Of a stretch of 64,000 nt of DNA, positions 1,462 to 56,985 are shown piece by piece. The notes under the pieces are model-generated. The model made no database searches. It was not told where the DNA came from and saw nothing but the letters and a program-made list of their open reading frames with translations. The stretch is from Escherichia coli (GTDB taxonomy: Bacteria; Pseudomonadota; Gammaproteobacteria; Enterobacterales; Enterobacteriaceae): assembly GCF_003991155.1 (NCBI RefSeq), contig NZ_CP031293.1; one strand, written 5' to 3'. The position numbers and the translations under genes were made by a program. Every line of letters starts with the position of its first letter. Positions within the stretch are counted from its first letter, which is position 1.

Positions 1462-1973
1462 GTGAAAAAAGAAACCGATATCCGGCGTGGAAGGCATTGT
1501 GTTTTCCTGATGCATGTTCACCTGGTCTTTGTCCCAAATACCGACGCCAGATTTTTGACCATGACGCGACAGAAAAACTACGCACTTACTTTTCAAATGT
1601 ATGTGCTGATTTTGAAGCTGAACGGGTTGAAATGGATGGCGAACCAGATCACGTCCATTTGTTAATTAACTATCCTCCCAAACTGGCGATATCCAGTCTG
1701 GTAAACAGCCTCAAAGGTGTATCGGGTAGGTGACTGCGACGAGATCGACCAGATATTGCAGTCAGGTATTACTACAAAGGCGTTTTGTGGAGTCCTGGCT
1801 ATTTTGCCAGTAGCTGCGGAGGTGCGCCAATATCCGTCATCCGCCAATACATTGAACAACAGCAAACACCTGGTCAGGTGGAAAACCGCGCCTTATATCC
1901 CCGCCCTGAAGGACGGGGTTTTACGGCGCACCGGATAAAGAAACCGTCAAAATCACTCAGCAAAACAGGCTGA
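1462..1973 (+). pseudogene. tnpA: tnpA (IS200-like Y1 HuH transposase), disrupted by at least two frameshifts
   Basis: Transposase motifs are spread over three frames: HVHLVFVP (1462..1665), PKYRRQ...DHVHLLINYPPKLAISSLVNSLKG (1455..1733), WSPGYFASSCGGAPISVIRQYIEQQ (1785..1973). The first shift sits at the A-run in gtcccaaatacc. Confidence 0.8.
1899..1918. repeat. IS subterminal imperfect palindrome (left-end hairpin, tnpA side)
   Basis: ccccgccctgaaggacgggg, about 20 nt inside the inferred end. Confidence 0.6.
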
Positions 1974-2344
1974 ATGCAAAATCCAGCAGTGGGGTTTACC
2001 TTCTGCCTGGAGCGAAAACACCGGCAAGACTGGAAAGCCAGATCGGTACTTTACGTATGTCGCTAGTGAATATTACGCATGATACAGATGGCACCACCCT
2101 GACGCTACGTATTCAGGGCGAGTCGAATGACCCCTTGCCCGCATTCAGCGGAACTGTTGAATATGGGCAAATTCAGGGAACAATAGACAACTTTCAGGAA
2201 ATCAATTTGCAGAATCAATTGATTAATGCCCCTGCCAGCGTCCTCGTCCCCAGCGATGTTGATATTCCGTTACAGTTAAAGGGGATTTCTGTAGAACAGT
2301 TAGACTTTGTACGTATCCACGACATTCAACCTGTTATGCAGTAA
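1940..2344 (+). pseudogene. yajI: yajI 3' fragment (remainder of lipoprotein YajI)
   Basis: In-frame continuation ETVKITQQNRLNAKSSSGVYLLPGAK... leading into track ORF 2057..2344 (MSLVNITHDTDGTTLTLRIQGESNDPLPAFSG...). Confidence 0.75.
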
Positions 2345-2469
2345 ACGTATAGCGGGGCGATTTTGTGCGTCCCGCAACATCTTTTCCCGTCATTTTGTTA
2401 CTCCGCTTACATCACCTGGATTGATAGTAAAAGTTTGCAACAAGGGTGAAAGTCAGTACAATCCCCGCC

Positions 2470-2560
2470 CGAATGTGTGTAAACGTGAACGCAATCGATT
2501 ACGTAAATGATAGAACTGTGAAACGAAACATATTTTTGTGAGCAATGATTTTTATAATAG
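2470..2560 (+). promoter_or_regulatory. tsx promoter region with CRP/CytR-type TGTGA half-sites
   Basis: TGTGA motifs at about 2517 and 2537 and an AT-rich -10-like stretch upstream of the tsx start; tsx is a known CRP/CytR/DeoR-regulated gene. Confidence 0.45.
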
Positions 2561-2642
2561 GCTCCTCTGTATACGAAATATTTAGAAACGCAATTTGCGC
2601 CTTTTTCACTCCCGCAAGGGATTTTCAAACAGTGGCATACAT

Positions 2643-3527
2643 ATGAAAAAAACATTACTGGCAGCCGGTGCGGTACTGGCGCTCTCTTCGTCTTTTACTG
2701 TCAACGCAGCTGAAAACGACAAACCGCAGTATCTTTCCGACTGGTGGCACCAGAGCGTTAACGTTGTCGGAAGCTATCACACCCGTTTCGGACCGCAGAT
2801 CCGCAACGATACCTACCTTGAGTACGAAGCATTCGCTAAAAAAGACTGGTTCGACTTCTATGGTTATGCGGATGCGCCGGTATTCTTCGGCGGTAACTCC
2901 GATGCAAAAGGTATCTGGAACCACGGTTCTCCGCTGTTTATGGAAATCGAACCGCGTTTCTCCATCGACAAACTGACCAATACTGACCTTAGCTTCGGTC
3001 CGTTCAAAGAGTGGTACTTCGCGAACAACTACATTTACGACATGGGTCGTAATAAAGATGGTCGCCAGAGCACCTGGTACATGGGTCTGGGTACCGACAT
3101 CGATACTGGTCTGCCGATGAGCCTGTCCATGAACGTCTATGCGAAATACCAGTGGCAGAACTATGGCGCAGCGAACGAAAACGAGTGGGACGGTTACCGT
3201 TTCAAAATTAAATACTTTGTGCCGATTACCGATCTGTGGGGCGGTCAGCTGAGCTACATCGGCTTCACCAACTTCGACTGGGGTTCCGATTTAGGGGATG
3301 ACAGCGGTAACGCAATCAACGGTATTAAGACCCGTACTAATAACTCTATCGCTTCCAGCCATATTCTGGCTCTGAACTACGATCATTGGCACTACTCTGT
3401 CGTAGCTCGTTACTGGCACGACGGTGGTCAGTGGAACGACGATGCAGAACTGAACTTCGGCAACGGCAACTTCAACGTTCGCTCTACCGGCTGGGGTGGT
3501 TACCTGGTAGTAGGTTACAACTTCTAA
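2643..3527 (+). CDS. tsx: Nucleoside-specific outer-membrane channel Tsx
   Basis: Track ORF 2595..3527 contains [38 protein letters not shown]...; ATG at 2643 gives the 294-aa precursor ending in GYNF. Confidence 0.95.
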
Positions 3528-3999: not shown

Positions 4000-4281
4000 T
4001 TACCAGTGACGGCGAGGTTCCATCAGCTGATGAAGAATGCGCGCAATGAGAATGTCATCGACTCTTATAACGTAATAAACAGTGTGAAACCTAAATGCGA
4101 TCTTCTTTACCTCTGGAATCGCATCATAGTCTTGCCCTATCTCGGGCATTTGAGAGAGTGTATCCAGAAAAATGCCGAGAGAGTCGGTGTAGCGATCCGC
4201 CTGCTCCTCACCAAACTTTCCCAGCGTGTAGTCATAGATCCCTCTGAAATCTTCAACAGCTTTTCCGCTAAGCTTATACAC
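4000..4281 (-). CDS. parE: ParE/RelE-superfamily type II toxin (ParE-like)
   Basis: Track ORF 4000..4314; the likely start is the GTG at 4281 (VYKLSGKAVEDF...), overlapping the antitoxin stop by 8 nt. ParE-like pattern ...YKLS..A..D...IYDY......A.R.......L..MPE.G......P......R...Y.YY.IRVDD.I.IARILH. Confidence 0.75.
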   Translation of the reverse strand: MYKLSGKAVEDFRGIYDYTLGKFGEEQADRYTDSLGIFLDTLSQMPEIGQDYDAIPEVKKIAFRFHTVYYVIRVDDILIARILHQLMEPRRHW

Positions 4282-4516
4282 GATGTTTTTGCTTCCTTTC
4301 TGCTGCGATATCACGAAGCGTCATCGAACTTTCACCGCTCTCAAGACCTTCAATAACAGCATTTCTGACAGCTTCATCCCTGGATTCTTGTTGTTCCAAT
4401 AGACGAAGCGCTGAACGCATTACTTCACTGGCCGAGCCATAACGACCAGACTGGACCATCCGTGTAATAAAACTATCTAATTGTTCGCCAACGCTTACTG
4501 AGGTAATTTTGCGCAT
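4274..4516 (-). CDS. parD: ParD-family (RHH/CopG-like) type II antitoxin
   Basis: 80 aa, MRKITSVSVGEQLDSFITRMVQSGRYGSASEVMRSALRLLEQQE...; ATG at 4516 with a GGAGA ribosome-binding site 7 nt upstream; sits immediately upstream of, and overlapping, the toxin ORF. Confidence 0.8.
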   Translation of the reverse strand: MRKITSVSVGEQLDSFITRMVQSGRYGSASEVMRSALRLLEQQESRDEAVRNAVIEGLESGESSMTLRDIAAERKQKHRV

Positions 4517-41909: not shown

Positions 41910-42592
<683 letters not shown>

Positions 42593-42606: not shown

Positions 42607-45570
<2,964 letters not shown>

Positions 45571-53577: not shown

Positions 53578-54351
53578 ATGATAAAACGGACGTTATTAGC
53601 GGCGGCCATTTTTAGCACATTGCCCGCTTATGCCGGGTTAACTTCCATTACCGCGGGCTACGATTTTACCGATTATTCTGGCGATCATGGCAATCGTAAT
53701 TTAGCGTATGCTGAACTGGTGGCGAAAGTTGAAAACGCAACGCTGCTTTTTAATCTTTCCCAGGGGCGTCGTGATTATGAAACTGAACATTTCAATGCCA
53801 CTCGCGGTCAGGGTGCGGTCTGGTATAAATGGAATAACTGGCTGACAACCCGAACGGGTATTGCCTTTGCGGATAATACGCCGGTCTTTGCCCGCCAGGA
53901 TTTTCGTCAGGATATTAACCTGGCACTGTTGCCAAAAACGCTTTTCACGACCGGTTATCGCTACACTAAATATTACGATGATGTCGAAGTCGATGCCTGG
54001 CAAGGCGGCGTATCCCTCTATACTGGCCCGGTGATCTCCAGCTACCGCTATACCCATTATGACTCCAGCGATGCAGGTGGTAGTTACAGCAATATGATTT
54101 CCGTGCGTCTGAATGACCCGCGCGGCACTGGTTATACGCAACTATGGCTAAGCCGCGGAACAGGCGCTTACACCTATGACTGGACGCCAGAAACACGCTA
54201 CGGCAGCATGAAGAGCGTCAGTTTGCAACGTATTCAACCGCTGACTGAGCAACTTAATCTCGGGCTGACGGCAGGTAAAGTGTGGTACGACACCCCAACC
54301 GATGATTATAACGGTCTGCAACTTGCAGCCCATCTGACCTGGAAATTCTAA
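53578..54351 (+). CDS. yaiO: Outer-membrane beta-barrel protein YaiO
   Basis: 257 aa, MIKRTLLAAAIFSTLPAYAGLTSITAGYDFTDYSGDHGNRNLAYAELVAK...; signal peptide and C-terminal ...HLTWKF. Confidence 0.9.
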   Translation: MIKRTLLAAAIFSTLPAYAGLTSITAGYDFTDYSGDHGNRNLAYAELVAKVENATLLFNLSQGRRDYETEHFNATRGQGAVWYKWNNWLTTRTGIAFADNTPVFARQDFRQDINLALLPKTLFTTGYRYTKYYDDVEVDAWQGGVSLYTGPVISSYRYTHYDSSDAGGSYSNMISVRLNDPRGTGYTQLWLSRGTGAYTYDWTPETRYGSMKSVSLQRIQPLTEQLNLGLTAGKVWYDTPTDDYNGLQLAAHLTWKF

Positions 54352-54457
54352 TTCCTTCTGCCGCCCGCTATCCGGGGCGGCCTTCCCTGCCGATTAGCCC
54401 CCCCTTTCCTCTTTGTTTTCCGACCACATTCACCGGATAAATTTTATTCTCCAGTGT

Positions 54458-54510
54458 TATATACTATAGGGGGGTATGCATTGACATATAGCATACCCCC
54501 CTATAGTATA
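54458..54510. promoter_or_regulatory. frmRAB promoter/operator: long inverted repeat with G6/C6 tracts (FrmR/RcnR-type site)
   Basis: tatatactataggggggtatgc ...attgacatat... gcatacccccctatagtata, 25-80 bp upstream of the frmR start. Confidence 0.7.
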
Positions 54511-54535
54511 TTGCGTGCAGATGATGAGGTGCGAA

Positions 54536-54811
54536 ATGCCCAGTACTCCGGAAGAGAAGAAAAAGGTCCTTACTCGAGTTCGTCGTATTCGGGGGCAAAT
54601 TGATGCTCTGGAACGGTCGCTGGAGGGTGATGCCGAATGCCGTGCCATACTCCAACAGATCGCTGCCGTTCGGGGCGCGGCTAACGGGCTGATGGCAGAA
54701 GTGCTTGAAAGCCATATCCGGGAAACGTTTGACCGAAATGACTGCTACAGCCGCGAAGTCAGCCAATCCGTTGACGACACTATTGAACTGGTTCGTGCCT
54801 ATCTTAAATAG
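54536..54811 (+). CDS. frmR: Formaldehyde-responsive repressor FrmR (CsoR/RcnR family)
   Basis: Track ORF 54515..54811; the recognised start is [60 protein letters not shown]... (91 aa). Confidence 0.92.
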
Positions 54812-54815
54812 CTGA

Positions 54816-55955
<1,140 letters not shown>

Positions 55956-56046: not shown

Positions 56047-56880
56047 ATGGAACTCATTGAAAAACATGCTAGCTTTGGCGGCTGGCAAAATGTGTATCGG
56101 CATTATTCCCAATCACTGAAATGTGAAATGAATGTCGGCGTCTATCTCCCACCAAAAGCCGGGAATGAAAAATTACCGGTGCTGTACTGGCTTTCGGGCC
56201 TGACCTGCAACGAGCAGAATTTCATTACTAAATCGGGGATGCAACGTTACGCGGCGGAGCACAACATTATTGTTGTTGCGCCAGACACCAGTCCGCGAGG
56301 CAGTCATGTCGCAGATGCCGACCGTTACGATCTCGGGCAAGGTGCCGGGTTTTACCTGAACGCAACGCAAGCGCCGTGGAATGAACATTACAAAATGTAT
56401 GATTATATCCACAACGAGCTGCCGGATTTAGTGATGCAACATTTTCCGGCAACGACCAGAAAGTCTATCTCAGGTCATTCTATGGGCGGGCTGGGCGCGC
56501 TGGTGCTGGCGTTACGTAATCCAGATGAATATGTCAGCGTCTCGGCATTTTCGCCCATTGTCTCCCCATCGCAAGTACCGTGGGGACAGCAAGCCTTTGC
56601 CGCATATCTTGGTGAAAATAAAGAGGCCTGGTTGGATTACGATCCGGTGAGCCTTATTTCACAAGGTCAACGCGTTGCGGAAATCATGGTTGATCAGGGG
56701 TTGAGTGATGATTTTTACGCAGAACAGCTGCGGACTCCAAATCTTGAAAAGATCTGCCAGGAGATGAATATCAAGACGTTAATCCGTTATCACGAGGGTT
56801 ACGACCACAGCTATTATTTTGTCTCCAGTTTTATTGGCGAGCATATTGCGTACCACGCCAATAAACTGAATATGCGTTGA
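56047..56880 (+). CDS. frmB: S-formylglutathione hydrolase
   Basis: 277 aa, MELIEKHASFGGWQNVYRHYSQSLKCEMNVGVYLPPKAGNEKLPVLYWLSGLTC...; GHSMGG esterase motif. Confidence 0.95.
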   Translation: MELIEKHASFGGWQNVYRHYSQSLKCEMNVGVYLPPKAGNEKLPVLYWLSGLTCNEQNFITKSGMQRYAAEHNIIVVAPDTSPRGSHVADADRYDLGQGAGFYLNATQAPWNEHYKMYDYIHNELPDLVMQHFPATTRKSISGHSMGGLGALVLALRNPDEYVSVSAFSPIVSPSQVPWGQQAFAAYLGENKEAWLDYDPVSLISQGQRVAEIMVDQGLSDDFYAEQLRTPNLEKICQEMNIKTLIRYHEGYDHSYYFVSSFIGEHIAYHANKLNMR

Positions 56881-56882
56881 TA

Positions 56883-56985
56883 ATGCCGGATGCGGCGTGA
56901 ACGCCTTATCCGCCTACATTTCGCCTGGAAACCGTAGGCATGATAAGACTCGCAAAGCGTCGCATCAGGCATCTGCACATGATTT
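56883..56985. repeat. REP/BIME elements between frmB and yaiL
   Basis: gccggatgcggcgtgaacgccttatccgcctac ... gataagactcgcaaagcgtcgcatcaggcatctgcaca. Confidence 0.7.

Follow-up and report, generated by a model that had tools for sequence, protein, structure and literature searches.

The long inverted repeat in the yaiO-frmR intergenic spacer of E. coli is very probably the frmRAB operator, made up of two mirror-image type I sites (ATAC-N9-GTAT) at which FrmR blocks sigma-70 RNA polymerase and from which formaldehyde releases FrmR. The identity of this palindrome as the FrmR operator of Pfrm is already known from published work; the present analysis establishes its anatomy, its overlap with the promoter, and the wide conservation of the dyad. 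All positions refer to the window, the whole stretch of 64,000 nucleotides that was analyzed (contig NZ_CP031293.1), and the features are collected in Table 1.

Anatomy of the palindrome and the frmRAB promoter

Of 5,426 complete E. coli genomes, 5,415 had a match at ≥95% identity to the 521 nt surrounding the palindrome; in every case yaiO lay on one side of it and frmR-frmA-frmB on the other. The gene downstream of the palindrome encodes FrmR. Its product contains Pfam domain PF02583 (3e-23) and matches, from end to end, 5LBM, the solved structure of E. coli FrmR; RefSeq annotates the operon as frmR-frmA-frmB. The window was identical to strain 2016C-3878 up to about position 56,900, and the sole indel between them lies there, at or just past the frmB-yaiL spacer. 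That spacer (56883-56975) carries REP-like palindromic units (gccggatgcggcgtgaacgccttatccg... and ...gcgtcgcatcaggcat).

Table 1. Features of the palindrome and the frmRAB operon, in window coordinates
Feature	Coordinates	Strand	Description	Basis
Whole palindrome	54459..54511	.	Operator-promoter core of Pfrm	Repeat search, shuffles, PMC5146963
Left arm	54459-54479		ATATACTATAGGGGGGTATGC	
Right arm	54491-54511		GCATACCCCCCTATAGTATAT	
Distal FrmR site	54461..54477	.	ATAC-TATAGGGGG-GTAT, type I, with G6	Exact ATAC-N9-GTAT match
G6 tract	54469-54474			
-35 hexamer	54481..54486	+	TTGACA, inside the spacer between the arms	Promoter scan
Proximal FrmR site	54493..54509	.	ATAC-CCCCCTATA-GTAT, with C6, overlaps the -10	Exact ATAC-N9-GTAT match
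C6 tract	54496-54501			
-10 hexamer	54504..54509	+	TAGTAT, inside the proximal site, 17 nt from the -35	Promoter scan
Shine-Dalgarno of frmR	54526..54529	+	GAGG	Read from sequence; same in all 10 Escherichia sequences
frmR	54536..54811	+	DUF156/CsoR-RcnR family formaldehyde-sensing repressor, 91 aa, Pro2, Cys35 and His60; ATG at 54536	Pfam, structure match, RefSeq
frmA	54846..55955	+	S-(hydroxymethyl)glutathione dehydrogenase	
frmB (fghA)	56047..56880	+	S-formylglutathione hydrolase	

A repeat finder returned 21-nt arms that are 100% complementary and separated by an 11-nt spacer, the palindrome ending 25 nt upstream of the frmR start codon. This agrees with the sequence-only reading, which had noticed a long perfect inverted repeat with G6 and C6 tracts upstream of frmR; the span it gave, 54458-54510, captured the element but missed each end by one base, as T54458 is unpaired (opposite T54512) and T54511 pairs with A54459. 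Among perfect inverted repeats with a loop of ≤60 nt, this is the longest in the window, the runner-up having 13-nt arms. When the whole window was shuffled 200 times with dinucleotides preserved, the longest repeat measured 9 to 15 nt, and the number of repeats with arms of ≥21 nt expected by chance was ~9e-7; a chance origin is thus ruled out. A repeated or mobile element is ruled out as well: exact ATAC-N9-GTAT occurs just twice in the window, once in each arm, and the palindrome region was matched in 5,409 of 5,426 E. coli genomes, the median being one place in each.

The only sigma-70-like promoter between 54300 and 54900 was TTGACA-17-TAGTAT (10 of 12 matches), with a start site predicted near 54515-54517, downstream of the palindrome. 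The distal site stops 3 bp short of the -35 hexamer, and the proximal site spans the promoter spacer together with the -10 hexamer; the site centers are 32 bp apart (54469 to 54501). We used the definition of a type I operator given in PMC5146963 for tract length and flanking repeat. By that definition, a CsoR/RcnR (DUF156) operator has a G/C tract of 3 to 8 bp within an AT-rich inverted repeat, and here both the G6 and the C6 tract are enclosed by ATAC...GTAT; a cognate DUF156 repressor gene, that of the PF02583 protein, lies 25 nt downstream, and the sites cover its promoter. The earlier proposal that the palindrome sits over the likely frmRAB promoter was therefore borne out, with the -35 in the spacer and the -10 in the right arm. 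So was its proposed role as the probable FrmR operator, given the FrmR gene downstream, the covered promoter, and the description of an identical repeat as FrmR sites in PMC5146963. The picture of one long palindromic site gave way to two sites, one per arm.

Three other features of the window were recorded in passing. The second-longest perfect inverted repeat (42551-42580; 13-nt arms TAATGCCCGTCAA/TTGACGGGCATTA, 4-nt loop) lies just downstream of a minus-strand autotransporter gene (42619-45570) and is probably its terminator. Mapping of coordinates to the annotated record placed an IS200/IS605 element at 231-1871, where it splits a DUF3251 gene and consists of a frameshifted tnpA pseudogene and an intact TnpB/InsQ gene. 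A ParD/ParE-type toxin-antitoxin pair, likewise mapped from annotation, lies between secF and yajD (4000-4516).

Conservation across frmR operons and variation within E. coli

We compared 80 loci encoding FrmR relatives (52 to 100% identical, one genome per species) from Alpha-, Beta-, and Gammaproteobacteria. Pro2 and Cys35 were kept in all 80, and a frmA-like gene lay directly downstream in 76; we therefore regard these loci as true frmR operons. An exact ATAC-N9-GTAT was found within 130 nt upstream of the start codon in 65 of the 80, so that the motif is conserved upstream of orthologs with the formaldehyde-sensing residues, as an FrmR operator should be. In most loci lacking the exact dyad, the dyad was a near match or was shortened by 1 bp, or else the site ran into the start codon. 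The consensus of 63 distinct proximal sites was ATACT-CCCC-NNN-AGTAT-A, and positions outside the selected motif were still conserved (T5, 1.43 bits; C6, 1.29; C7, 1.19; A13, 1.34; A18, 1.27). The G/C run was typically 4 to 5 long. Since a run of six occurred in just 3 of the 63 proximal sites, the G6/C6 of E. coli is the long extreme of this range and not a requirement.

The second site is less widespread. Compared with the proximal-equivalent site (65 of 80 loci), a distal-equivalent site was present in 27 to 28, namely, in Escherichia, Providencia, Morganella, Aeromonas, Serratia, Pantoea, Erwinia, Deefgea, and Paraburkholderia and also in the plasmid-type operon of Enterobacter and Edwardsiella; 41 of the 80 relatives had a single site and no long repeat. 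Most two-site promoters had TTGAC between sites spaced 32 to 35 bp apart, with a spacing of 23 bp in Paraburkholderia, and the spacer between the arms ranged from 11 to at least 25 nt. The two sites were usually mirror images that co-varied by lineage (GGGGGG/CCCCCC in Escherichia versus GTGGAG/CTCCAC in Enterobacter, Edwardsiella, and Morganella). Because a second site is found in some lineages only, what is widely conserved is the site itself, and its pairing in two copies as a long perfect palindrome is lineage specific. This comparison may be of use in the engineering of Pfrm. It identifies the ATACT/AGTAT dyad, with a C-run of 4 to 5 bp beside one half-site, as the conserved determinant; a G6 tract, a second site, and a perfect palindrome belong to particular lineages and are not required.

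Several loci departed from this layout. In Erwinia endophytica (L016:1400-1503) the two sites are in direct, not mirror, orientation (ATACTGGGATATAGTAT and ATACTGGTGTATAGTAT) and have a G-run beside ATACT where other genera have a C-run. In the Lysobacter/Thermomonas group (L030, L034-L036, L053, L056, and L078) the site, ATACTCCCCCCCACT, occupies the last ~20 nt before the frmR ATG and abuts it, so that either the transcript is leaderless, the true start codon is another one, or the operator overlaps the start codon. Three loci (1777-3273), from a Citrobacter metagenome-assembled genome (L006), Klebsiella grimontii (L009), and Maribrevibacterium (L011), have a 91%-identical frmR that is not followed by frmA. 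In K. grimontii, the one of the three that was inspected downstream of the gene, frmR is followed by ~0.85 kb without open reading frames and then by an iron-type alcohol dehydrogenase gene. The distal site of these loci is an ATAC-N10-GTAT variant, and their upstream regions are almost identical across unrelated hosts, which suggests that this frmR region is a mobile cassette.

Variation within the species was examined in 10 Escherichia sequences and 96 metagenomic E. coli copies. The 17-nt sites were nearly invariant in both samples; the left (distal) site, which the search probe did not constrain, was identical in 91 of the 96 copies. Substitutions were concentrated in the spacer and in those arm pairs that lie innermost. 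Changes at 54479, 54491, and 54492, seen in 19 of the 96 copies, were not matched by a compensating substitution in the opposite arm, and in about a quarter of E. coli copies an innermost-pair substitution shortened the perfect arms to 19 to 20 nt. Such uncompensated inner-pair substitutions suggest that the sites are constrained and the length of the stem is not, a statistically weak indication given that little varies in the neighboring flank either. The low diversity of the arms within E. coli agreed with constraint but, with the flank at 54426-54454 equally invariant, was not significant as a test of it.

Repression by FrmR and alternative readings

Each site has a G/C tract between the halves of an AT-rich dyad. 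In the mechanism that we favor, tetrameric FrmR would occupy both sites when formaldehyde is absent, bracketing the -35 and covering the -10, and sigma-70 RNA polymerase would be excluded; occlusion is expected because the spacer contains the -35 and the right site contains the -10. Formaldehyde would cross-link Pro2 of one subunit to Cys35 of another and remodel the DNA-binding face, whereupon FrmR would leave and frmR-frmA-frmB would be transcribed. With frmR at the head of the operon, this is a negatively autoregulated circuit. The exact contacts, and the choice between two tetramers and one that bridges both sites, we infer.

Published experiments have shown FrmR binding to Pfrm DNA, its release by formaldehyde, and repression both in vitro and in vivo. 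Denby et al. (2016, Sci Rep 6:38879; PMC5146963) described a long inverted repeat with its center near -29 in E. coli K-12 Pfrm as tandem type I FrmR sites, ATAC-N9-GTAT, an assignment based on sequence and modeling, not on a footprint. They reported that FrmR binds Pfrm DNA with a Kd of ~220 nM, that formaldehyde makes it dissociate in bio-layer interferometry, that FrmR specifically represses frmRAB transcription in vitro, and that it works through a Pro2-Cys35 methylene bridge (PMC5146963). The hybrid promoter J23100M derives from the constitutive promoter J23100 and has ATAC-N9-GTAT sites both upstream of its -35 and between the -35 and the -10; FrmR repressed it fully, and induction exceeded 40-fold (PMC11127321). 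Transplanted sites are thus sufficient for FrmR repression (PMC11127321). A truncated PfrmR without the DNA upstream of the sites lost repression though both sites were kept (PMC11127321), and DNA upstream of the palindrome (window ~54380-54458) may therefore contribute, perhaps by wrapping as proposed for RcnR. The Pfrm operator is already in use in formaldehyde and methylglyoxal biosensors, so the palindrome carries little weight as a discovery.

Rohlhill et al. reportedly identified a pair of 19-bp repressor sites, the first upstream of the -35 and the second over the -10. According to PMC8601185 and PMC8899819, which cite it, that Sort-Seq mutagenesis study (Rohlhill et al. 2017) located repressor sites of Pfrm within the palindromic region. 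The nucleotide-level necessity of the E. coli sites accordingly rests on these secondary citations.

It is possible, though we think it somewhat doubtful, that the promoter-proximal site alone is essential. The distal arm would then be an accessory copy that makes repression stronger, whether by cooperativity, by DNA wrapping, or by a bridge formed with the second face of one tetramer. The near-universal proximal site compared with the patchy distal one favors this reading, as does the range of site spacings (32 to 35 bp, and 23 bp in Paraburkholderia), which argues against a single strict geometry. Denby et al. raised bridging by a single tetramer alongside binding by two tetramers (PMC5146963), and in Salmonella a single-tract operator is enough for repression (PMC4528141, PMC5016687). 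Against it, the distal and proximal sites were equally invariant across the E. coli sample, and J23100M, which worked, carried both sites (PMC11127321).

One genome raised a different idea about the spacer. In E. coli FJ_Ec_21 (NZ_CP143627.1, 3528776-3528846; L086:61-131), the 11-nt spacer is reverse-complemented within the segment matching window 54478-54492: TATATGTCAAT replaces ATTGACATATA, together with G54478T. Comparison of its 53-nt element with the window gave 10 mismatches in the forward orientation and 1 after reverse complementation. With the normal sequence as a control, the TTGACA-17-TAGTAT promoter (10/12) was found on the minus strand, directed toward yaiO, and a 9/12 match was left toward frmR. 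Each arm has a TAGTAT -10 on its own strand and the arms form a perfect palindrome, so spacer orientation alone sets the direction of the promoter. The flipped version appeared in at most two records at ≥99% identity among 5,348 genomes matched and in none of the metagenome contigs, compared with 96 normal copies; it may reflect a hairpin-templated mutation or an assembly artifact. We consider it very improbable that the flip is a recurrent, hairpin-templated event by which the operator would also serve as a rare mutational switch, on/off or directional, for formaldehyde detoxification. If it were, the same copying could explain how the arms stay identical within a lineage.

A function for the hairpin or cruciform itself, with protein recognition secondary, is highly improbable. 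Under this reading an RNA stem would end or stabilize the yaiO transcript, or an extruded DNA cruciform would control the promoter. A single strand does fold into a 21-bp stem of -21.5 kcal/mol (z = -7 versus shuffles), and the arms co-vary between lineages in the way noted above. However, no T-run follows the stem on either strand, 54300-54900 contains no terminator-like site, and Rfam 15 gave no match at the gathering score in the whole window, which together rule out an intrinsic terminator or RNA element. The predicted start site also places the palindrome outside the frmRAB mRNA. The many single-site relatives, the direct sites of Erwinia, the uncompensated inner-pair changes, and the variable spacer length argue further against this reading.

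Binding or cross-regulation by RcnR, the paralogous nickel/cobalt sensor, is extremely unlikely: both arms fit a TACT-N7-AGTA dyad with 1 mismatch each and have a G6 tract, but the literal RcnR motif TACT-G6-N-AGTA (TACTGGGGGGNAGTA) had no match with ≤3 mismatches at 54459-54511, the G/C tract is at the opposite end of the 7-bp interval between half-sites, and Pfrm in cells responded to formaldehyde and not to metals (PMC4528141, PMC5146963). The sequence-only reading had assigned the palindrome to the TACT-G6-N-AGTA type; the TACT-N7-AGTA geometry of that assignment stood, while the literal motif, with 4 mismatches per arm when counted by hand, did not.

Comparison with known operators

The palindrome is the same element as the E. 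coli K-12 Pfrm operator (PMC5146963), and nothing of substance differs between them; we measured 32 bp between site centers, compared with the 31 given in PMC5146963.

The Salmonella frmRA operator-promoter (Osman et al. 2015, 2016; PMC4528141, PMC5016687) resembles Pfrm in having a C6 tract within a T/A-rich inverted repeat upstream of frmR, and formaldehyde relieves binding in both. The flanking repeat is needed in Salmonella, where mutation of one T/A-rich repeat abolished binding (PMC4528141, PMC5016687). It differs in that a single tract, on a 33-bp probe, binds two FrmR tetramers (PMC4528141, PMC5016687). Salmonella FrmR is only 52% identical, and its operon lacks frmB and lies elsewhere in the genome; the authors of the Salmonella work called the operator-promoter sequences distinct (PMC4528141, PMC5016687).

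The RcnR operator in the E. coli rcnR-rcnA spacer shares the type I DUF156 layout, with a TACT/AGTA-type dyad 7 bp apart around a G/C tract. In the account of it given in PMC5146963, it has, like Pfrm, two sites per promoter with one tetramer modeled per site, and the site centers are 19 bp apart, whereas those of Pfrm are separated by 32 bp. The effectors differ as well: RcnR responds to nickel and cobalt, and FrmR responds to formaldehyde.
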